From assembly GCF_965641715.1 (NCBI RefSeq), contig NZ_OZ282453.1: DNA of 64,000 nucleotides. One strand, written 5' to 3'. This stretch comes from Escherichia coli. GTDB taxonomy: Bacteria > Pseudomonadota > Gammaproteobacteria > Enterobacterales > Enterobacteriaceae. Positions within the stretch are counted from its first letter, which is position 1. Every line of letters starts with the position of its first letter. A program made the position numbers and the translations under genes. Positions 2,038-49,275 of the stretch are shown here, in pieces. Below the pieces are notes generated by a model. The model was not told the origin of the DNA, made no database searches, and was given only the letters and a program-made list of their open reading frames with translations.

Positions 2038-2066
2038 GCCCTCTTCGTGGGAAGAGGGCTATTTTG
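2038..2066. terminator. Rho-independent terminator hairpin shared by convergent ggt and yrhB
   Basis: Stem GCCCTCTTC (2038..2046) / GAAGAGGGC (2051..2059), loop GTGG, followed by TATTTTG. Confidence 0.7.
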
Positions 2067-2351
2067 TCAGGGCAAGCCGAAGGTAGCCTTTTTTATTTCG
2101 TAATCCTGTAGATATTCTTCCAGCGGCTTTGCCGTTCCCAGAGAATGAATTTCACCACTGTCTTTATCAATAATAAAAGGTGCGTTACCAGCTAAGCGCG
2201 CGGCCTCATCTCCAGTTTCGAGAAATTCTCGTGCTTCGAAACAGAAATACCAGCCCTGGCTAAAGCGTCCATGTAGAGTAATGACGACCGGGAGATCTGC
2301 ATCATCAAGGTAATGGTTCGCTTTCGCGAATGCGTCGTGATAAGTAATCAT
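2067..2351 (-). CDS. yrhB: small 94-aa protein at the position of K-12 yrhB
   Basis: ORF track 2067..2351 (94 aa); size and position next to ggt match K-12 yrhB (recalled); the sequence itself was not independently recognised. Confidence 0.55.
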   Translation of the reverse strand: MITYHDAFAKANHYLDDADLPVVITLHGRFSQGWYFCFEAREFLETGDEAARLAGNAPFIIDKDSGEIHSLGTAKPLEEYLQDYEIKKATFGLP

Positions 2352-2800
2352 AATTATAATAAATATTATTGTTGAATGTTATATTATTATTCCTGTGTGA
2401 TACATTGAGCAAAGGTGCATTCATCTTCGTCAAAGATATTATTAAATGCTGGTTTTGAAAAAAGTTCATCGGATAAGATATAGTCACGAAATAAGTATCT
2501 GCTAATATTTTGTGATTTCTTTTTCAGAACGTCGAACGGGATTTTCTTATTTAAGATATCAGAATCTTATGATTTGGGTAAAATTCTAAATAAATCAACA
2601 TGTCACTAAAATCATCATAGCCATTAGCTATTTCGGCTAAAATAGAGACTACATGTCTTCGGTCCATCTCACTTAAGGAGTGTAGTTCCGTTGTAAGTTT
2701 TTCCATAGCTTGCATTGCTAAATTTCGAACAAGGAATTTTCTGGTGGTAATCTCTAAAAAGATGGCATGGTTTACAATGATTTTTGTTTCCTTTTGATTA

Positions 2801-3295
2801 TTATGAACAACTATCCATGATTTCGTTTAAGAATGAAGAGAAATCACTAAACGAACTGAATATATTTTCTGTGCCAATATTATCTCTAATTTCAAAAAAG
2901 TTACTTTTAATGTCATAAGTAAATATTGAAATGCTATCATCCCCGATCACTAACCGTTCTTGTAGATCAGGGTTTATGAAATCATCATTATTTCTATAAA
3001 ATTCATTTACGGCAAAAAGGTTTTTAACTGAAGGTTCTGGAATCGAGAGGCTAAATAATCGCAATCCATTAACTTCGAATCCATCCATTGCTCTTAAAAA
3101 AGTAAGATAATCAGGTTGATTCTTAAAAAGAATACTAACTTCATTACATAACTTCTCCAGGCAATTAGTTGAATTAGAATTAAATTCTATTTGGATTATA
3201 CTTTCAATAAATGATTCCTTGAGCGGTGCTTCAAATGGATAGTCTAAATCATTCATCATTTTTATTAATTTGTTTATTTGGGTTTTAGTCATCAT
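2801..3295 (-). CDS. putative immunity protein for the upstream HNH-like toxin domain (position of K-12 yrhA)
   Basis: 164-aa acidic ORF; its ATG overlaps the stop of the toxin-domain ORF (ATGA overlap at 3292..3295); AT-rich codon usage like the neighbouring Hcp gene. Confidence 0.5.
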   Translation of the reverse strand: MMTKTQINKLIKMMNDLDYPFEAPLKESFIESIIQIEFNSNSTNCLEKLCNEVSILFKNQPDYLTFLRAMDGFEVNGLRLFSLSIPEPSVKNLFAVNEFYRNNDDFINPDLQERLVIGDDSISIFTYDIKSNFFEIRDNIGTENIFSSFSDFSSFLNEIMDSCS

Positions 3296-3678
3296 TTTGT
3301 GGGTTCCATAATATTTTTCATGGGAGGATAAATTGAGCCAGATGGAATGGCCCAGGGAGTGATTTTGCTTTCACCTACTAATATTCCCTTAGCTATTCGT
3401 GATTGCATGTTAGTAAAAACTTTATGATATGGTTCGTTTTCGATTAATACTAAATTTTCGAAATCATTAGTACCACCATCATCTAGAGATAGTTTATGGT
3501 GAACATTATAATTTAGAGGAACATAGCCCTTTCTCATTCTTAAAAGGTCTTCGGTGTTGAATCTTCCAGATGCTTCGGAGGTTTTTGCAAGTTTGATAAG
3601 AAAATTTTTTCTTACAGTTTTGTTAAACTCCTTTCGTAAGTTAGCTAAGTCTTTTGAAGGTCTCTTAATGTATATTAT
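3292..3678 (-). other. C-terminal HNH-like nuclease toxin domain of an Hcp-toxin fusion (yhhZ-like), in frame with the Hcp ORF but separated from it by one TAA
   Basis: Frame arithmetic: 4470-3537=933 (multiple of 3); the 47 codons between the TAA (3679..3681) and the ATG at 3535..3537 contain no stop and translate cleanly (IIYIKRPSKDLANLRKEFNKTV...); HNH-type motif NVHHKLSLDDGGTNDFENLVLIENEPYHK. Confidence 0.55.
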
Positions 3679-4470
3679 TTATATTATGTCTATGCCATCA
3701 AGAAGTTTTTGTTGATCTCTAAGTTTGCCTAAGTAACTATTTATTTCTGTATATGTATCAACTTTAGAACGCTTTGTTAAAAGAATAGATGCTGTTGCTA
3801 TCGCTATGCCCGCTGTTTTTTCATTTAGTATTTGATCATAGCCTTTGATTGCATCTCCACCCAGTTTTTCCGCAGTATCTCTGAATCCTTCAATGTTCCC
3901 ATTGTATACGCCACCAGCAGCAAGTAGCCTGCCAACAGCTTTGCTGTTTAACGTTTTGAAACGATTATTTGTTTGGTTTTTTGAATTTGGTAAAAACAAA
4001 CGGTTATAATTTTCAGGGAGTGCCAAATAGCTGAACTCGGTATTTGCGATAAGATGTTGACAGAGGATAAATTCATAACTAACAGTTATTGTTTCTGTAT
4101 CCAGTTGATTTTGAATGATCTGATGATGAATAGCCGATAAAAAAGCGCCTCTTAGTTGTGTATAATAATACTTTTCCCATCTACCAAATCTATTGATTCT
4201 ATAAAAGTCAAATTTCATAAATAATTGCTCATTATTGTTAATGGAATTAATAAGTAATGGAGTGCTTTTATCAATTAATTTACAAAATGTCATAGCCTGT
4301 AACTGTGAACCAAGCCCCGTATTAGTAATTCTATTTTCGAGTGAGAATGTAAATATTTCATTCTCATGCCCGCTCTGCCAGCGATTACCTATAGATTCAG
4401 TAGTCCCACAACCTGCGGAGATGCTTCCTTGTTGTTCTCCCGTTACTGTCAGATAAACAATATTACTCAT
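3679..4470 (-). CDS. yhhZ: Hcp (type VI secretion tube protein) domain with C-terminal extension; N-terminal part of a yhhZ-like Hcp-toxin fusion ending at an in-frame TAA
   Basis: N-terminus MSNIVYLTVTGEQQGSISAGCGTTESIGNRWQSGHENEIFTFS is Hcp-like; 263 codons to TAA at 3679..3681; ORFs 3679..4470 and 3292..3537 share one frame; combined length ~392 codons equals K-12 YhhZ as recalled. Confidence 0.7.
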   Translation of the reverse strand: MSNIVYLTVTGEQQGSISAGCGTTESIGNRWQSGHENEIFTFSLENRITNTGLGSQLQAMTFCKLIDKSTPLLINSINNNEQLFMKFDFYRINRFGRWEKYYYTQLRGAFLSAIHHQIIQNQLDTETITVSYEFILCQHLIANTEFSYLALPENYNRLFLPNSKNQTNNRFKTLNSKAVGRLLAAGGVYNGNIEGFRDTAEKLGGDAIKGYDQILNEKTAGIAIATASILLTKRSKVDTYTEINSYLGKLRDQQKLLDGIDII

Positions 4471-4706
4471 CCCTGAAAAGTCCTTTTATGGCATGCTATT
4501 TTATCAATGGCACTATTATGCTTGTTAATTGTTATTTATTTACTCCAGGAAATTGTAGGCGTATATATTAAAAAATAAAATATTACACTTTAGGAAGTAA
4601 TTATGAGGTAAGTCTCAATATATTTATTGGGAAAATAAATACATTAAAGGAAGGTATGCCGATTTTGAATGACACCCTTTTTCCATCTCAGAAAAAGGGC
4701 ACTATT

Positions 4707-5195: not shown

Positions 5196-5528
5196 TCCTT
5201 TGTCCTCTTTGGGGTAAATGTCCCTTTCAACATCATTGACTTTCGAATGCGAGTCAAATGCATTTTTTTGCAAAAAGTGTTGGACAAGTGCGAATGAGAA
5301 TGATTATTATTGTCTCGCGATCAGGAAGACCCTCGCGGAGAACCTGAAAGCACGACATTGCTCACATTGCTTCCAGTATTACTTAGCCAGCCGGGTGCTG
5401 GCTTTTTTTTTGATCTTTCGTTCTCAATTTATCCTCGGGAAGTGCTTGTGTTCGTTATGCGCACTCCAGTAGGAACCACGTCCGCTTTGCGCTAAGGTGT
5501 AAATAACCACCTTAAAAAGGACGAAATC

Positions 5529-10613: not shown

Positions 10614-10625
10614 TTACTGCGACAA

Positions 10626-10665
10626 ATTACTGCGAGCTTGCTCGCAGTAATTCATTTCTCTTTTC
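10626..10665 (+). terminator. gntU terminator hairpin
   Basis: Perfect inverted repeat ATTACTGCGA (10626..10635) / TCGCAGTAAT (10642..10651) followed by TCATTTCTCTTTTC. Confidence 0.6.
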
Positions 10666-10698
10666 TCCTCTCTTCATCTTTTTGATCTCTCTCGCAAA

Positions 10699-10747
10699 TT
10701 TACCTGCAAATAATCCGTTCTAATCACTGCCTAAAGATCGCAGGAGA
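10699..10747 (+). promoter_or_regulatory. candidate sigma70 promoter and RBS for the RecQ-like gene
   Basis: TTTACC (10699..10704), 16-nt spacer, TAATCA (10721..10726); AGGAGA (10742..10747) 5 nt upstream of the ATG at 10753. Confidence 0.3.
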
Positions 10748-10752
10748 TAAAG

Positions 10753-12849
10753 ATGGAAAAGCACGCAGCTGAATTGCTTTTACAGCGGATGTTAGGAAAT
10801 ACCACCGCTACTTTCAGGGAAGGGCAATGGGAAGCCATAGACGCGGTGGTGAACCAACGGCGAAAACTGCTGGTTGTCCAACGCACTGGCTGGGGGAAAA
10901 GTGCTGTGTACTTCATCGCCAGTAAAATCTTCCGCGATCGCGGCGCTGGCCCGACAATTATCATCTCTCCTTTGCTTGCCCTGATGCGTAACCAGGTTGC
11001 CGCCGCTGAACGGTTAGGTATTACGGCTGAAACGTTGAATTCTACAAACAGAGAAGAATGGCAGCGCATTAGCGATAAGTTGCTGCAAGGTGAGGTCGAT
11101 TGCTTGCTGGTTTCCCCGGAACGTTTGGCAAACCAGGACTTTATCGAAACGGTTTTATATCCTATAGCCGATCGTATTGGCTTGCTTGTGGTCGACGAGG
11201 CGCACTGCATCTCTGATTGGGGCCACGATTTTCGCCCGGATTACCGACGTATATTAGATATTTTGCGCCAACTACCTGCGAATACCCCTGTTCTGGGTAC
11301 AACCGCGACAGCGAATAACCGTGTCGTTGAGGATATCCGTCAGCAATTGGGTGACATTGTGATTCAGCGTGGAACGCTGGCTCGCGAAAGTTTGGCGCTT
11401 GATGCCTTAGTCTTAGGTGAACAGTCATCCCGTCTGGCATGGTTAGCAACGGTTATCCCTCAGTTTTCCAAATCGGGAATTGTTTATACCCTGACTACTC
11501 GCGATGCCGAACTTGTCGCCGAGTGGTTAAGGAAAAATGGTATCAGTGCATTTGCTTACTACAGCGGCGTGACTTGCGAAGGCGCGGAAGATTCTAATAC
11601 TGCCAGGGAATATCTGGAGCAGGCGTTGCTGGCAAATAAAATTAAAGTGCTGGTTGCGACAACGGCGCTGGGAATGGGCTTTGACAAACCGGATTTGGGG
11701 TTTGTTATTCATTACCAGATGCCAGGTTCGATAGTTGGTTACTACCAACAGGTGGGGCGTGCCGGTCGCGGTATCGATTCTGCTGTTGGCATACTGCTTT
11801 GCGGCAGTGAAGACCGTGCTATTCATAAATTCTTCCGTGAAAGCGCCTTTCCTGCGGAGGCGCAAATTCATGAAATACTCAACGTACTTAGCGTGAATGA
11901 CGGTCTTACCTTACGAGGCATTGAACAACGGACGAATCTCCGTTATGGGCAAATAGAAAAAGCACTGAAATTATTGGTAGCTGAAAATCCATCGCCTGTG
12001 GTGTATACCGAGAAATTATGGCGCAGAACAATTGTCAGTTTTTCTCCTGACCATGAACGAATTAACCATTTGATGAATCAGAGAAAAAGTGAGCTGGCAG
12101 ACGTTGAAAGCTATATCACGACCAAGGAGTGCAAAATGCAATTTCTGCGCCGCGCACTCGATGAGCCAGGTGCCGAACATTGTGGTAAATGTAGCAGTTG
12201 TCTTCAGCATCCGTTGTTGTCGCCCGACATTGATAGCGGCTTACTCCATGCGGCAAACTTATTTATTAAACACGCTGACCTGCCATTAAATCTCAATAAA
12301 CAGGTGGCAGCTGGGGCTTTTACGCAATACGGATTTAAAGGGAACTTGCCTGCGAGTTTACAAGGATCTACGGGGCGAATCCTTTCTCGTTGGGGAGATT
12401 CCGGGTGGGGAAAGCAGGTAGCACAGGAGAAAAAAACGGGGCGATTCAGTGATGAACTGGTGGAGGCATGTGCGGAAATGGTTCGCCAACGCTGGAATCC
12501 GCATCCTGAACCAACCTGGGTATGCTGCGTTCCTTCATTAAAGCACCTCGACCTGGTTCCTGATTTTGCCCGGCGACTGGCGGCGAAACTTGGCTTACCT
12601 TTTATTGATGCCATTGAAAAAGTCGTGGACAATCCACCGCAGAAAATGCAGCAAAACCGTTTCCACCAGTGTCAAAATCTCGACGGGGCGTTTGTGATTA
12701 CCCCTCCTTTGATGCCTGGTCCGGCGTTGCTGGTTGACGATATCGTGGATTCTGCATGGACGCTGACAGTTCTGACAGCACTGTTACGCCAGGCAGGTTG
12801 CCCGACGGTTTATCCTCTTGCCCTTGCTTCTACCTCGGTAAAAAATTGA
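10753..12849 (+). CDS. RecQ-like superfamily-2 DNA helicase fused to a C-terminal divergent phosphoribosyltransferase (ComF/GntX-like) domain; candidate toxin/effector of a two-gene module
   Basis: 698-aa ORF. Walker A QRTGWGKSAV, DEAH box LLVVDEAHCISDWGHDFR, motif VI QQVGRAGRG, Cys cluster CKMQ...HCGKCSSC, C-terminal PRTase-like fold with altered PRPP loop (LLVDDIVDSAWTL). Strong AGGAGA RBS. Confidence 0.85.
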   Translation: MEKHAAELLLQRMLGNTTATFREGQWEAIDAVVNQRRKLLVVQRTGWGKSAVYFIASKIFRDRGAGPTIIISPLLALMRNQVAAAERLGITAETLNSTNREEWQRISDKLLQGEVDCLLVSPERLANQDFIETVLYPIADRIGLLVVDEAHCISDWGHDFRPDYRRILDILRQLPANTPVLGTTATANNRVVEDIRQQLGDIVIQRGTLARESLALDALVLGEQSSRLAWLATVIPQFSKSGIVYTLTTRDAELVAEWLRKNGISAFAYYSGVTCEGAEDSNTAREYLEQALLANKIKVLVATTALGMGFDKPDLGFVIHYQMPGSIVGYYQQVGRAGRGIDSAVGILLCGSEDRAIHKFFRESAFPAEAQIHEILNVLSVNDGLTLRGIEQRTNLRYGQIEKALKLLVAENPSPVVYTEKLWRRTIVSFSPDHERINHLMNQRKSELADVESYITTKECKMQFLRRALDEPGAEHCGKCSSCLQHPLLSPDIDSGLLHAANLFIKHADLPLNLNKQVAAGAFTQYGFKGNLPASLQGSTGRILSRWGDSGWGKQVAQEKKTGRFSDELVEACAEMVRQRWNPHPEPTWVCCVPSLKHLDLVPDFARRLAAKLGLPFIDAIEKVVDNPPQKMQQNRFHQCQNLDGAFVITPPLMPGPALLVDDIVDSAWTLTVLTALLRQAGCPTVYPLALASTSVKN

Positions 12850-14051
12850 TGAATCTTTCAGCCAATGCACAAGCAACTCTCCTGCTAACCAGCGATTTTT
12901 CTCGCGCGGCGGCGAGTGAGTATAAACCTCTTAGTAATAGTGAATGGGGGAAGTTTGCATTATGGCTGAAGCACCAACGTATCAGTCCCGCCGAGCTTCT
13001 GGTGCCGCAACCGCAAGAGAAACTTACAGGCTGGAGCGATCCGCGTATTTCTCAGGAGCGTATTCTTGGCTTGCTGGCGCGTGGTCATAGTCTGGCGTTG
13101 GCGGTAGATAAGTGGCAACGCGCCGGTTTATGGATCTTAACCCGCGGAGATGCTGATTATCCCGTTCGCTTGAAAAACCGATTGCGAACGGATGCACCTC
13201 CCGTTTTATTTGGCTGCGGGAATAAAGCATTACTGCAAGCGGAAGGTATGGCGATTGTTGGCTCGCGAGATGCTCCGACTGACGATTTGCGCTATACCCA
13301 ACAACTGGCCGCGAAACTGGCCCAACAGGGGATTTGCGTTATCTCTGGTGGTGCGCGAGGTATTGATGAATGTGCAATGGCGTCGGCACTGGAGGCCGGG
13401 GGAACTGCCGTTGGCGTATTAGCTGATAGCTTGTTAAAAACGAGTACGTTAGTGAAATGGCGTGAAGGGCTTATAGCAGGCAACCTGGTGTTGATTTCGC
13501 CGTTTTACCCAGAGGTACGTTTCACCGTCGGCAATGCGATGGCGCGAAATAAATATATTTATTGCCTTGCTGAAAGCGCAATGGTTGTACGTGCGGGAAT
13601 GACCGGTGGAACGATAACCGGGGCGATGGAGGCATTAAAACATCAGTGGCTGCCTGTGCAGGTTAAACCAAATCAGGATATGCAATCAGCCAATTCACGA
13701 TTAGTAGAAAATGGGGCGTCATGGAGTGCTGAACAGGCTGAGAATGTGACGATCAGACTGCCAGACGTTCCTGGGCTGATGTATGACAGAGCACTCCGTA
13801 ACGCTCAACCAGAACTGTTTTCGCTGCATGAAGATGACGCAAATTACGCAGTAATGCCCGCGTATACGCCTGTCGATTTTTATCAACTCTTTGTGGCGGA
13901 ACTGGCGATCCTTGCAAAGGAATCGATAAGTATTGAAAGGCTGGCGTCTTGTACTGGTTTAACCATCGAACAAATTAGTGTGTGGCTGAACCGCGCAGAA
14001 GAAGAGGGAAGGGTTATCCGATTGGGCGAAGGTCATTATCAGTTCAGGTAA
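12849..14051 (+). CDS. DprA/Smf-like protein; candidate antitoxin/partner of the RecQ-PRTase protein
   Basis: ATG at 12849..12851 overlaps the helicase TGA (12847..12849); 400 aa (MNLSANAQATLLL...); Rossmann signature GMAIVGSRDAPTDDLRYTQQLAAKLAQQGICVISGGARGIDECAMASALEAGG; ORF track extends it upstream in the same frame (12756). Confidence 0.8.
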   Translation: MNLSANAQATLLLTSDFSRAAASEYKPLSNSEWGKFALWLKHQRISPAELLVPQPQEKLTGWSDPRISQERILGLLARGHSLALAVDKWQRAGLWILTRGDADYPVRLKNRLRTDAPPVLFGCGNKALLQAEGMAIVGSRDAPTDDLRYTQQLAAKLAQQGICVISGGARGIDECAMASALEAGGTAVGVLADSLLKTSTLVKWREGLIAGNLVLISPFYPEVRFTVGNAMARNKYIYCLAESAMVVRAGMTGGTITGAMEALKHQWLPVQVKPNQDMQSANSRLVENGASWSAEQAENVTIRLPDVPGLMYDRALRNAQPELFSLHEDDANYAVMPAYTPVDFYQLFVAELAILAKESISIERLASCTGLTIEQISVWLNRAEEEGRVIRLGEGHYQFR

Positions 14052-14053
14052 TA

Positions 14054-14091
14054 AAACAGGTGCCGCGTCTGGTTGTGTGCAGCACCTGTTT
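14054..14091. terminator. inverted repeat / likely bidirectional terminator between the DprA-like gene and yhgN
   Basis: AAACAGGTGC (14054..14063) / GCACCTGTTT (14082..14091), 18-nt loop. Confidence 0.4.
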
Positions 14092-14096
14092 GAACC

Positions 14097-25742: not shown

Positions 25743-27260
25743 ATGGACAGAATGATGCCAAATAGAAAATGGATTTTGACCTCGCTGATAATGACTTTTT
25801 TCGGCATCCCCATACTGGCGCAATTTTTGGCAGCGGTTGTTGCCATGCTGGGTGTCGGGCTTACCGGTATTATTGAAGTTTGTAATATCCTTATCACGCC
25901 AACAATTTATCTTCTACTCAACGTCTTTATGCTGACGCTGGGGGCGATAATAATATTTTTCTCTGGTCGCGTGTGGGCCGGTGATAGCGCGCCAGAAAAC
26001 AGAGAAATAGCCGTCTGGCGGCAATGCTTTTTTCTCTTACCCGCGCTATTAACCTTGGTTGGCTGGATAATCACGCTACATCTGGCAGATTATCAATTTC
26101 GCCAGATGGGAGCTGGTTGGTTGGCAAACCTTATGCTTCCCTGGTTGGGCGTTTTTTTAGTCTCATTAGTGGGTGGTGAGTACTGGTGGATGGTCATTAT
26201 TCCCGTTGGGGCGCATATCAGTTTTTCGCTGGGATACGCCTGGCCGACCAGATATCCTTTATCCGGCACGTCCGGACTACGTTGCCGTAACTTACTCCTG
26301 TTTCTACTTATCTTACTTGGTATTGTCGCCGGGTATCAGGCCCATTTATATAAGCAGCAAAATCCTGGTGTCGGTGTACGCGAAAATATTGATATCTGGG
26401 CCTGGCGACCCGATAAACTCAATAATCGACTGACGCCGCTGCGTGGCAAACCGCAAATTCAGTTTAGGCAAAACTGGCCGCGAATCGATGGCGCCACGGC
26501 TGCGTACCCAATTTATGCTTCTGCATTTTATGCATTAAGTGTAATACCAGAGGATTTTCACGTTTGGGATTATCTGGAAAACTCTCGTACGCCAGAAGCA
26601 TATAACAAAATCGTTAAGGGCGATGCTGATATTATTTTCGTGGCGCAACCTTCCGGTGGGCAAAAAAAACGTGCAAAGGAATCTGGTGTCACTTTGGTGT
26701 ACACCCCCTTTGCCCGTGAAGCATTCGTTTTCATCGTCAATGCGGATAATCCGGTTAATTCCCTGACTGAACAACAGGTGCGTGACATTTTCAGTGGTGC
26801 AATTACCAATTGGCGTACTGTTGGCGGTAACGATCAGGAGATCCAGACCTGGCAGCGCCCGGAAGACTCTGGCAGCCAGACAGTGATGCAATCACAGGTC
26901 ATGAAAAATGTCCGCATGATCTCGCCGCAGGAAACGGAAGTGGCAAGCGTGATGGAGGGAATGATTAAAGTCGTTGCCGAATACCGTAATACAAACAACG
27001 CAATAGGCTATACCTTCCGCTATTACGCGACGCAAATGAATGCCGATAAAAATATAAAACTGCTAGCGATTAACGGTATTGCACCGACTGCGGAAAATAT
27101 TCGCAATGGCAAATATGCGTACATCGTCGATGCATTTATGGTGACGAGAGAAAATACAACGTCAGAAACACAAAAACTGGTCGAATGGTTTTTAACGCCG
27201 CAGGGGCAGAGTCTGGTAGAAGATGTGGGATATGTGCCGCTGTATCCAACAATGGAATAA
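25743..27260 (+). CDS. membrane-anchored PstS-like (PBP-like) substrate-binding protein: ~6-7 TM N-terminal domain plus C-terminal binding domain
   Basis: 505-aa ORF; N-terminal ~200 aa with several hydrophobic helices; C-terminal domain paralogous to the next gene (IIFVAQPSGGQKKRAKESGV...WQRPEDSGSQTVMQ); start codon uncertain (25743, 25752 or 25755). Confidence 0.75.
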   Translation: MDRMMPNRKWILTSLIMTFFGIPILAQFLAAVVAMLGVGLTGIIEVCNILITPTIYLLLNVFMLTLGAIIIFFSGRVWAGDSAPENREIAVWRQCFFLLPALLTLVGWIITLHLADYQFRQMGAGWLANLMLPWLGVFLVSLVGGEYWWMVIIPVGAHISFSLGYAWPTRYPLSGTSGLRCRNLLLFLLILLGIVAGYQAHLYKQQNPGVGVRENIDIWAWRPDKLNNRLTPLRGKPQIQFRQNWPRIDGATAAYPIYASAFYALSVIPEDFHVWDYLENSRTPEAYNKIVKGDADIIFVAQPSGGQKKRAKESGVTLVYTPFAREAFVFIVNADNPVNSLTEQQVRDIFSGAITNWRTVGGNDQEIQTWQRPEDSGSQTVMQSQVMKNVRMISPQETEVASVMEGMIKVVAEYRNTNNAIGYTFRYYATQMNADKNIKLLAINGIAPTAENIRNGKYAYIVDAFMVTRENTTSETQKLVEWFLTPQGQSLVEDVGYVPLYPTME

Positions 27261-27285
27261 CGCTCGAGAGAAAGGAATCAGCGAG

Positions 27286-28278
27286 ATGAATAAATTCACC
27301 GGTGTTTTACTATTAGGCACGGCGTTACTGGCGGGATGTGTCGACCGGGAAGGGTACTATAACAGCGTCAGGGAAGAAGAGAGCCATGGACTGACGTCTC
27401 TGCGGGGGCAACCTGCATTACGTTACAGCGATGATTGGTCAAGATGGCCGAGAGTGTACGGCGCTACAGCCTTATACCCGCTGTATGCCTCCGCGTATTA
27501 TAAATTAGTACCCGAGCCAAAAGATAAGGATCGAACCTCGCTGGCCTGGCAGGCGTATGGTTTGCAGCAAACCCGAACAGCTGAAGCCTACGATAGTCTG
27601 ATTAAAGGTTCCGCGACGGTTATTTTTGTTGCACAACCGTCGGAAGGACAGAAAAAACGTGCAGAAGAAGCGGGTGTTAAACTGAAATATACCGCTTTCG
27701 CCCGCGAAGCCTTTGTCTTTATCGTTGATATTAATAACCCGGTAAATTCTCTCTCTGAGCACCAGGTTAAAGATATTTTTAGCGGCAAAACTAGCCGCTG
27801 GAATAAAGTAGGTGGTAGTGACGAACATATAAAAGTCTGGCAGCGCCCTGAAGATTCTGGAAGCCAAACGATTATGAAGGGATTGGTTATGCAAGACACC
27901 CCAATGCTGCCAGCTAAAAAATCCACTGTGATTGATCTTATGGGCGGTTTAATTACTGAAGTTGCCGACTATCAAAACACGCCATCTTCCATTGGGTACA
28001 CCTTCCACTATTACGTCACTCGTATGAATGACAATATGCTCAAAATGCGCAAGCAGATTAAACTTTTGGCTATAAATGGCGTTGCGCCTACCGAGGAAAA
28101 TATCCGCAACGGCACTTATCCATACATTGTGGATGCCTATATGGTGACGCGTGAAAATCCCACGCCGGAAACGCAGAAATTTGTTGACTGGTTTATAAGT
28201 CAGCAGGGGCAACAGTTGGTAGAGGATGTGGGGTATGTGCCGCTGTATGAAGCATCCCCCGAATCATCAGGACAATAA
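27286..28278 (+). CDS. PstS-like (PBP-like) substrate-binding lipoprotein, paralogue of the upstream gene
   Basis: Frame of ORF 27223..28278; start MNKFTGVLLLGTALLAGC (lipobox LLAGC) at 27286 after AAAGGAA; 330 aa; shares VIFVAQPSEGQKKRAEEAGV...WQRPEDSGSQTIMKG with the upstream gene. Confidence 0.8.
   Translation: MNKFTGVLLLGTALLAGCVDREGYYNSVREEESHGLTSLRGQPALRYSDDWSRWPRVYGATALYPLYASAYYKLVPEPKDKDRTSLAWQAYGLQQTRTAEAYDSLIKGSATVIFVAQPSEGQKKRAEEAGVKLKYTAFAREAFVFIVDINNPVNSLSEHQVKDIFSGKTSRWNKVGGSDEHIKVWQRPEDSGSQTIMKGLVMQDTPMLPAKKSTVIDLMGGLITEVADYQNTPSSIGYTFHYYVTRMNDNMLKMRKQIKLLAINGVAPTEENIRNGTYPYIVDAYMVTRENPTPETQKFVDWFISQQGQQLVEDVGYVPLYEASPESSGQ

Positions 28279-35212: not shown

Positions 35213-37578
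<2,366 letters not shown>

Positions 37579-47783: not shown

Positions 47784-49275
<1,492 letters not shown>

Follow-up and report, generated by a model that had tools for sequence, protein, structure and literature searches.

A chromosomal rqlH–rqlI (PsyrTA) gene pair between gntU and yhgN of Escherichia coli, probably a toxin–antitoxin system of the abortive-infection type

Introduction

Between gntU and yhgN on the Escherichia coli contig NZ_OZ282453.1, of which a stretch of 64,000 nucleotides was analysed (the window), two adjacent genes encode a helicase fused to a phosphoribosyltransferase (PRTase) domain and a DprA-like protein. The question raised by this locus is whether the pair belongs to the machinery for handling single-stranded DNA (ssDNA) in natural transformation, as its domain content might suggest, or serves another purpose. 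A sequence-only reading had likened it to a fused competence-type set, with a helicase, a ComFC/GntX-like domain and a DprA-like protein as possible sensor or inhibitor. According to the analysis presented here, the pair is the chromosomal rqlH–rqlI (PsyrTA) operon and probably (at roughly 70%) acts as a toxin–antitoxin system of the abortive-infection anti-phage type. Earlier publications already cover the two genes, their behaviour as toxin and antitoxin, the binding of their products to each other, the listing among anti-phage systems and the analogy to competence proteins, so that as a discovery the pair matters little. PsyrTA as a toxin–antitoxin system reportedly goes back to Sberro 2013.

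Results

Identity and organization of the gene pair

The identification as RqlHI/PsyrTA is based on full-length matches to the models of both PsyrT and PsyrA, on the residue numbering and protein lengths of the E. coli F11 proteins, on the RefSeq annotation and on the locus. The product of rqlH matches the PADLOC model PsyrT (PDLC03928) with E = 0 and 1065.9 bits (aa 3-697 on model positions 5-687 of 689), that of rqlI the model PsyrA (PDLC03927) with E = 1.1e-202 (aa 1-400 on model positions 1-397 of 398). Both open reading frames are uninterrupted, lie on the plus strand and have the positions given for them earlier (10753-12849 and 12756/12849-14051). The toxin gene is located 5' and the antitoxin gene 3', and the rqlH stop and the rqlI start share 1 nt (TGATG, 12847-12851); the same gene order is found, with 4-nt overlaps, in Marinobacter, Shewanella and Citrobacter. 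In E. coli F11, rqlH and rqlI form an operon (Russell & Mulvey 2015, PMC4670107). Translation of RqlI likely starts at the ATG at 12849 rather than at the RefSeq-annotated ATG at 12756, since the alignment to PsyrA is full-length from there, M1 is invariant among 32 homologues and the published RqlI has 400 aa. The features of the locus are compiled in Table 1.

Table 1. Features of the rqlH–rqlI locus (positions in the window)
Feature	Position	Strand	Description and basis
Upstream spacer	10614..10752	+	Module-bearing haplotype only; unrelated to the 56-bp K-12 spacer; sequence read
Terminator-like hairpin after gntU	10625-10652		Within the upstream spacer
Shine-Dalgarno AGGAG	10742-10746	+	6 nt ahead of the rqlH ATG
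rqlH / psyrT	10753..12849	+	698-aa RecQ-like helicase–PRTase fusion, toxin-bearing; PADLOC, NCBIfam, Pfam, residue numbering
SF2 helicase core	10810..11823	+	aa ~20-357; Walker A GWGKS (K49), DEAH (D148)
Tetracysteine zinc-binding module	12130..12201	+	C460, C477, C480, C483; weak Pfam RecQ_Zn_bind match, aa 443-484
PRTase domain, predicted toxic effector	12277..12846	+	aa 509-698; AF2 model, Foldseek, family profile
PRPP-binding loop VDDIVDS	12733-12753	+	aa 661-667 of RqlH
rqlI / psyrA	12849..14051	+	400-aa DprA-like antitoxin; PADLOC, Pfam, AF2 and Foldseek
GC-rich hairpin between convergent rqlI and yhgN	14054..14091	.	Fold −21.9 kcal/mol, z = −3.68

A scan of the plus strand upstream of rqlH revealed no consensus sigma-70 promoter. 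The hairpin downstream of rqlI, equalled in stability by none of 200 shuffled sequences, has its better T-run on the minus strand and is probably a bidirectional terminator.

The helicase part of RqlH

Pfam assigned the domains DEAD (4.9e-25) and Helicase_C (9.5e-13) to RqlH, and with 253.9 bits the protein passes the NCBIfam family recQ_fam (TIGR00614, cut-off 219.8). It is not a RecQ proper, the scores for TIGR01389 (298 versus 640.2) and NF008279 (226 versus 1015) both being below the equivalog cut-offs, and neither an RQC nor an HRDC domain was found by Pfam. The best NCBIfam families were RecQ and DpdF, and none of the 23 matches was to ComFA. As judged from its sequence, the helicase is of the RecQ type and not a ComFA. 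The RqlH orthologue of M. smegmatis translocates along ssDNA in the 3'-5' direction and has helicase activity, and the tetracysteine zinc module has been described for RqlH in the same work (Ordonez et al. 2012, PMC3378886).

The PRTase domain

The C-terminal part of RqlH is matched weakly by Pfam Pribosyltran (aa 605-683), while the AlphaFold model of the last 209 aa (pLDDT 90.1) adopts a type I PRTase fold. A Foldseek search of the PDB with this model retrieved ComF, APRT, HPRT and PurF, with ComF of H. pylori (7p0h) as the top match (E = 1.6e-4), APRT and HPRT next (2.3-2.7e-4) and these three sharing a TM-score near 0.4. By sequence, the single domain reached only E ~0.1 against the PDB, and a profile of the family matched the PRPP loops of PRPP synthetase and HPRT, not ComF. 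At a relaxed E-value, GntX was the best NCBIfam match of the domain (NF008616, E = 0.011, 15.2 bits versus a cut-off of 304), and BLASTP aligned 76 aa in the region of the PRPP loop to the GntX of E. coli encoded in the same window (47784-48467), with 28% identity. A truncated fragment is labelled 'ComF family protein' by PGAP. NCBIfam, BLASTP, Foldseek and the profile agree on the PRTase superfamily, none of them separating ComF clearly; if the modelled domain favours ComF over APRT, HPRT or PRPP synthetase at all, it does so only marginally. Of the earlier label 'ComFC/GntX-like', the PRTase superfamily stands, whereas the specific affiliation with GntX or ComF is tentative.

The DprA-like protein RqlI

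The AlphaFold model of RqlI (pLDDT 84) shows three domains: aa 1-91 are helical, aa 89-292 form a Rossmann domain of the DprA/SLOG type, and aa 344-400, preceded by a disordered linker (306-341), fold as a winged helix. The Rossmann domain, recognized by Pfam as DNA_processg_A (PF02481, 4.7e-51, aa 89-292) and also matched by the SLOG family LDcluster4, lies between the N-terminal helical domain and the C-terminal winged helix, the arrangement of the DprA superfamily fold. The Foldseek matches of the model were DprA (3maj, 2.5e-18), in second place ShosA (8zva, 1.1e-15) and another DprA (3uqz, 1.6e-15). RqlI is not a bona fide DprA, as it scores 102 versus 191.15 for TIGR00732 and 79.9 versus 495 for NF008007. 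A helicase–PRTase fusion encoded beside a DprA-like protein, as proposed from the sequence, was borne out by Pfam, NCBIfam, PADLOC and AlphaFold/Foldseek. The view of a fused competence-type set was retained for the three superfamilies and given up at the family level, ComFA being absent from the matches and the specific thresholds for GntX and DprA being missed; the likeness of the module to ComFA/ComFC/DprA is at the superfamily level only.

Locus and distribution

Of 5426 complete E. coli genomes, 1650 (~30%) carry rqlHI in place of a 56-bp spacer between gntU and yhgN, and the E. coli alleles of the module share 96-100% DNA identity. Compared to the empty site of K-12, no direct repeats, integrase, IS element or tRNA were found at the module borders; since the entire spacer is exchanged, insertion and deletion are both compatible with the data. 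The flanks are split in only 13 of 5425 genomes, so that the locus shows a presence/absence polymorphism and is not a hotspot for multiple cargoes. The pair is located at the same gntU–yhgN locus with intact open reading frames in Citrobacter, and in both genera this is a fixed housekeeping locus without mobile-element or defence-island neighbours. In Marinobacter and Shewanella, the pair is nested in type I restriction-modification operons (hsdM–hsdS–[T–A]–hsdR) adjoining integrases. Searches by tblastn with the PRTase domain identified plasmid copies, mostly distant, in 11 of 72,556 records and no copy in the phage collection. In O157:H7, the toxin gene is decayed and the antitoxin gene retained. 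RqlH occurs without RqlI in most Gram-positive bacteria and may therefore also serve a non-toxic DNA metabolism.

Discussion

Toxicity, neutralization and a proposed mechanism

RqlH alone is toxic in K-12; the toxicity of the F11 protein is lost with the exchange D663A or with the deletion of aa 509-690, and the helicase mutants K49A and D148A stay toxic (Russell & Mulvey 2015, PMC4670107). The PRTase loop residues DIVD663-666 are kept in the RqlH encoded in the window. RqlI rescues the toxicity of RqlH, co-immunoprecipitation of the pair needs the PRTase domain, and ΔrqlHI mutants are without a fitness phenotype (PMC4670107). The suggestion that the DprA-like protein acts as an inhibitor thus agrees with the experiments on a near-identical E. 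coli RqlI.

In the proposed mechanism, RqlH would act as a RecQ-like 3'-5' ssDNA translocase/helicase carrying a C-terminal PRPP-binding PRTase domain, which, if unrestrained, would be genotoxic: cells would induce the SOS response, filament, accumulate mutations and lose viability. RqlI, a protein of the DprA/SLOG fold presumably formed by coupled translation from an mRNA shared with RqlH, would silence the PRTase domain by direct binding, and the helicase ATPase would add restraint; toxicity, binding and silencing by RqlI as well as restraint by the ATPase are experimental results obtained with near-identical E. coli alleles (PMC4670107). Upon phage infection this restraint may be lost, either because phage ssDNA, SSB or replication intermediates titrate RqlI away or because RqlI decays following host shut-off, whereupon the PRTase would harm nucleotide or DNA metabolism and replication would stop. 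[quoted passage not shown] A mechanistic paper on PsyrTA itself was not found in the literature from 2023 onwards. It is also conceivable, if quite improbable, that the tethered PRTase, unlike ShosT with its action on free bases, acts directly on nucleic acid exposed by the translocase, e.g. by phosphoribosylating ssDNA bases, and that the SLOG/LOG-like Rossmann domain of RqlI blocks the lesion or reverses it enzymatically. A direct action of the PRTase on nucleic acid was raised earlier as a speculation (Russell & Mulvey, PMC4670107) and, if true on ssDNA, would add a novel type of DNA modification serving immunity or genome maintenance.

Defence and its alternatives

In Millman et al. 2022, PsyrTA (= RqlHI) is among the validated anti-phage systems, a ΔpsyrA construct could not be transformed, and anti-phage activity is reported with donors other than the native copy of E. 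coli NILS69. In the native host NILS69, or upon expression in K-12, protection by PsyrTA was undetectable with the phages tested. We count the nesting in restriction-modification operons beside integrases in Marinobacter and Shewanella in favour of defence, as well as the decay in O157:H7, a pattern typical of toxin–antitoxin pairs. The null result with NILS69, the missing phenotype of ΔrqlHI mutants, the fixed locus outside defence islands and the occurrence of RqlH without RqlI in most Gram-positive bacteria are counted against it.

The same observations bear on a cooperative role in DNA maintenance, a model proposed by Russell & Mulvey (Fig. 10 in PMC4670107), in which the PRTase of RqlH would modify a base or nucleotide on DNA exposed by the helicase, RqlI would resolve the intermediate and toxicity would reflect an imbalance of the two. 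The chromosomal locus, which is fixed, common to Citrobacter and outside a defence island, would fit this model, as would the lack of protection in NILS69 and the SLOG/LOG-like fold of RqlI, which is kin to nucleotide phosphoribohydrolases. We nevertheless consider it unlikely, as the phenotype of ΔrqlHI was undetectable (PMC4670107), 70% of the E. coli genomes are devoid of the pair, O157:H7 kept the antitoxin alone, and the family confers heterologous phage resistance and is elsewhere sited in restriction-modification operons. The pair might also be a purely selfish addiction module, of no use to the host and kept via post-segregational killing; it does behave as a toxin–antitoxin pair, deletion of both genes caused no fitness defect, native protection was not detected in NILS69 and the toxin has decayed in some lineages. 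This is still less probable, because the pair is located off mobile elements here and is rare on plasmids and absent from the phage collection as described above, because the conservation of the E. coli–Citrobacter locus with intact open reading frames argues for selection, and because members of the family are reported to act in defence.

Least probable by far is a module for DNA uptake, in which counterparts of ComFA, ComFC and DprA would process incoming transforming ssDNA. The domain-level agreement with the competence set in an SF2 helicase, a PRTase and a DprA fold, the top Foldseek rank of H. pylori ComF and the PGAP name of the truncated fragment speak for it. They are opposed by the RecQ-family helicase, by the scores for GntX and the DprA equivalog (15 bits versus 304 and 102 versus 191), by the presence of a separate GntX and DprA of its own in E. 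coli and by the action of the pair as toxin and antitoxin; furthermore, natural transformation was undetected in the isolates of Russell & Mulvey (PMC4670107).

Comparison with known systems

PsyrTA (Sberro 2013; Millman 2022) is represented by models in PADLOC and DefenseFinder, and both window proteins match the PADLOC models end to end. With ShosTA the pair shares a PRPP-binding PRTase toxin, an antitoxin of the DprA fold and a phenotype of DNA damage and filamentation; ShosT, however, is without a helicase. An assignment of the pair to ShosTA was rejected, since the PRTase domain of RqlH matches the ShosT model with E = 0.027 only and RqlI fits PsyrA (1e-202) far better than ShosA (2.7e-27). 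ShosA neutralizes ShosT without binding it; RqlI, by contrast, attaches to RqlH at the PRTase domain, as seen with near-identical E. coli alleles, and the transfer of the mechanism from ShosTA is therefore uncertain.

ComFA–ComFC–DprA comprises the same three superfamilies (SF2 helicase, type I PRTase fold, DprA Rossmann fold), but the pair in the window would differ from it in the RecQ-type helicase, in a PRTase that is fused instead of separate and, by analogy with its relatives, in its function as toxin and antitoxin. We know of no role of RqlHI in competence. The analogy to ComF and DprA has been drawn in print three times (Ordonez 2012, PMC3378886; Discussion of Russell 2015, PMC4670107; Iyer 2017). 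RqlH of M. smegmatis (PMC3378886) has the same RecQ-like ATPase, linker, tetracysteine zinc module and ComF-like PRTase and likewise no HRDC domain; unlike the pair in the window, the mycobacterial rqlH is without an rqlI partner.

The closest counterpart is RqlH–RqlI of the extraintestinal pathogenic (ExPEC) E. coli strain F11 (PMC4670107), which is of the same species and has the same gene order and the same lengths of 698 and 400 aa; the RqlH numbering K49, D148 and D663-D666 is matched as well. The rqlHI pair has been linked to the fitness of ExPEC in hosts. Compared by lengths and residues, there is no difference of substance between the two, and the copy in the window is a further allele at this locus. 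Present in ~30% of complete genomes, the E. coli rqlHI allele is a convenient model for the biochemistry of PsyrTA.

Identity of the module

The two adjacent ORFs form a module that is already known as RqlHI or PsyrTA, a toxin–antitoxin and anti-phage pair; the feature is real, and its sequence-only reading was right at the domain level. The PADLOC model of PsyrT was matched end to end by the first gene product, RqlH (E = 0, 1065.9 bits), and that of PsyrA by the second, RqlI (E = 1.1e-202). In contrast, the ShosA model of the sister system ShosTA matched RqlI much more weakly than PsyrA did (2.7e-27), and the ShosT model barely matched RqlH (E = 0.027, on the PRTase domain). Millman et al. 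(2022) give RqlHI as another name for PsyrTA, and RqlHI was studied in E. coli F11 (Russell & Mulvey 2015, PMC4670107). The residues mutated in F11 RqlH (K49, D148, DIVD663), its PRTase domain (aa 509-690) and the length of RqlI (400 aa; PMC4670107) fall exactly on their counterparts in the window proteins. Since these positions and lengths coincide, the window carries an allele of rqlH–rqlI.

Both ORFs were confirmed on the same strand with the extents first read from the sequence, apart from one correction. RefSeq places the start of the DprA-like gene at the upstream ATG (12756), resulting in a protein of 431 aa and a 94-nt overlap with rqlH. The ATG at 12849, overlapping the rqlH stop codon (TGATG), is in all likelihood the true start, because the 400-aa form aligns over residues 1-400 to positions 1-397 of the 398 in the PsyrA model, Met1 is invariant across 32 homologues from many genera, and the published RqlI has the same length.

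Coordinates of features in the window and in comparison loci from other genomes (L004-L009, numbered within each locus)
Feature	Sequence	Coordinates	Strand	Remark
rqlH (psyrT)	window	10753-12849	+	698 aa
rqlI (psyrA), open frame	window	12756-14051	+	same strand as rqlH
Insert at gntU–yhgN	window	10614-14096		3,483 bp
Stable hairpin	window	14054-14091		between convergent rqlI and yhgN; -21.9 kcal/mol, z = -3.7
gntX	window	47784-48467	-	adjoins nfuA and bioH
Variable segment, ggt to yhhY	window	2066-4705		33-38% GC
YrhA-family protein	window	2801-3295		in variable segment
81-aa fragment	window	3292-3537		in variable segment
Hcp/TssD-like protein, C-terminal extension	window	3679-4470	-	in variable segment
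RyhB sRNA	window	5346-5410	+	Rfam RF00057, 83 bits
Tandem PstS-family genes	window	25743-28278		glgP to glpD
IS4-family element	window	35867-37203		1337 bp, in rtcA
rqlH disrupted, NRZ94505	L004	1-4586		NZ_OZ501598.1
rqlH pseudogene, O157:H7 86-24	L005	1501-3625		NZ_CP017249.1
Nested pairs, Marinobacter / Shewanella	L006; L007; L008	537-10514; 474-10605; 577-10605
Citrobacter werkmanii pair	L009	3905-7206

Relationship to competence proteins

RqlH contains an SF2 helicase core (Pfam: DEAD 4.9e-25, Helicase_C 9.5e-13) and passes the curated RecQ-family threshold of TIGR00614 (253.9 versus 219.8 bits). The curated RecQ equivalog thresholds were not reached, and identity as ComFA was rejected in favour of the RecQ family. 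A tetracysteine cluster (C460, C477, C480, C483) is present, RecQ_Zn_bind matches weakly, and neither an HRDC nor an RQC domain was reported by Pfam. The C-terminal domain shows a weak match to Pribosyltran (E = 0.0087) and carries the PRPP loop VDDIVDS. Modelled from 35 aligned homologues (pLDDT 90.1), this PRTase domain had H. pylori ComF (7p0h, E = 1.6e-4) as its top Foldseek match, followed by APRT, purine PRTase and OPRT (2.3-3.1e-4) with TM-scores equal to that of ComF (approx. 0.4). Matches to the sequence profile of the domain are confined to PRPP loops in PRPP synthetases and HPRTs. GntX was its best NCBIfam match, yet membership was rejected at 15 bits, the cut-off being 304; its similarity to the GntX of the window, which is the ComFC homologue native to E. 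coli, is limited to the region of the PRPP loop (BLASTP, 28% identity over 76 residues).

The DprA domain of RqlI is strong (PF02481, 4.7e-51, aa 89-292) and is accompanied by a SLOG cluster-4 match; as a bona fide DprA the protein was rejected (102 bits, equivalog cut-off 191). Its predicted structure (pLDDT 84.3) has the three-domain layout of DprA and matches R. palustris DprA, ShosA and S. pneumoniae DprA, then Moco-carrier and LOG proteins. At the fold level, the likeness of RqlHI to ComFC and DprA is therefore real. Of the "competence-type" set of helicase, ComFC-like domain and DprA proposed from sequence, the fold-level likeness to ComFC and the DprA domain stand, whereas the family tests failed or were marginal and the helicase is of the RecQ family. 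The analogy has, moreover, been published (Ordonez 2012, PMC3378886; Russell & Mulvey 2015, PMC4670107; Iyer et al. 2017). The novelty of RqlHI is low, and potential for discovery lies only in the biochemistry of the PRTase.

Locus and distribution

The window follows the E. coli chromosome (ugpQ–ggt … gntRKU … yhgN–asd–glgBXCAP–glpD … malT–malPQ–gntT–nfuA–gntX–bioH … ompR–envZ–pckA). In the empty site of K-12, convergent gntU and yhgN are separated by a 56-bp spacer, which the insert replaces without any similarity between the two; the hairpin downstream of rqlI stands in place of a different one in the K-12 spacer. Comparison with the K-12 site revealed neither repeats nor an IS element, integrase or tRNA at the insert borders. 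Among 5426 complete E. coli genomes, 1650 carry the module, always on the chromosome and with 96-100% identity. Matches to the flanks occur in 5425 genomes, and in only 13 of these are the flanks split at gntU–yhgN. The site is a presence/absence polymorphism and no multi-cargo hotspot.

Citrobacter werkmanii has the pair where E. coli has it (gntU, pair, marC(yhgN)–asd–glgB), which shows that the locus is old; identity in RqlI is only 64% there. In Marinobacter and two Shewanella loci, psyrT–psyrA lies within a type I restriction-modification operon, with hsdS on one side and hsdR on the other, a setting typical of defence; the Shewanella loci adjoin a phage-type integrase. PsyrT-type PRTase domains are uncommon on plasmids, with 11 records, and the phage collection has none.

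The toxin gene has decayed in two strains. In O157:H7 86-24, rqlI is intact and rqlH is a pseudogene: it has lost 1 bp near codon 172, a CAA codon has become a TAA stop, and a 29-bp stretch of the PRTase domain is duplicated in tandem; the 3327-bp match length of 86-24 is common to other O157:H7 records. In NRZ94505, rqlH is interrupted by an ISEcp1–blaCTX-M-15–wbuC unit with a Tn3 remnant and rqlI is kept; the residual C-terminal rqlH fragment is labelled 'ComF family protein' by PGAP. Decay of this kind, in which the toxin goes and the antitoxin stays, is the pattern expected of a toxin–antitoxin pair.

Other features of the window

The rtcA gene is interrupted by an IS4-family element, presumably IS186-like, encoding a 372-aa transposase on the minus strand; it is flanked on both sides by the 12-bp direct repeat GGGAGTTTTCCC and is missing from strain XH990. 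The variable segment between ggt and yhhY is also unlike XH990 and has the look of a yhhZ–yrhA-type orphan type VI effector/immunity islet. Both tandem PstS-family substrate-binding protein genes score under the family cut-off, and just downstream of them, around 28380, approx. 524 bp are missing compared to XH990. RyhB was the sole Rfam match over the gathering score within the window.

Proposed mechanism and comparison with ShosTA

The genes rqlH and rqlI form one operon (PMC4670107). RqlH alone reduces growth and viability of K-12, induces SOS and causes filamentation; this harm is abolished by deletion of the PRTase domain or by D663A, while the PRTase domain alone is insufficient for it (PMC4670107). 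Helicase-dead K49A and D148A variants are still harmful unless D663A is added (PMC4670107), and the PRTase is thus restrained by both RqlI and the helicase. Rescue by RqlI requires its N-terminus and DprA region, the C-terminal HTH being dispensable (PMC4670107). The physical interaction expected in the sequence-only reading is on record, as RqlH co-immunoprecipitates with RqlI in a manner dependent on the PRTase domain (PMC4670107). [quoted passage not shown] Evidence on DNA binding, the other point put forward in the sequence-only reading, is confined to this orthologous helicase and to ShosA.

PsyrTA is among the validated anti-phage systems of Millman 2022, where a ΔpsyrA construct was unobtainable, 'possibly due to toxicity'. 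Against a defensive role in E. coli, neither deletion of PsyrTA in its native host NILS69 nor its expression in K-12 revealed detectable protection against the phages tested, and ΔrqlHI has no known phenotype (PMC4670107). The best-supported mechanism is direct sequestration, in which the DprA-like antitoxin RqlI holds the genotoxic, helicase-tethered PRTase (the experimentally shown half) and the PRTase would be released on infection. We infer the trigger, the PRTase substrate and any ssDNA sensing by RqlHI. In ShosTA, purine metabolism is disrupted by the PRPP-binding toxin ShosT, the antitoxin ShosA, which is DprA-like, binds ssDNA and RecA, and phages escape by mutations in their genes for SSB and primase-helicase. 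The action of ShosA does not involve binding to ShosT, and in this respect RqlI differs from ShosA.
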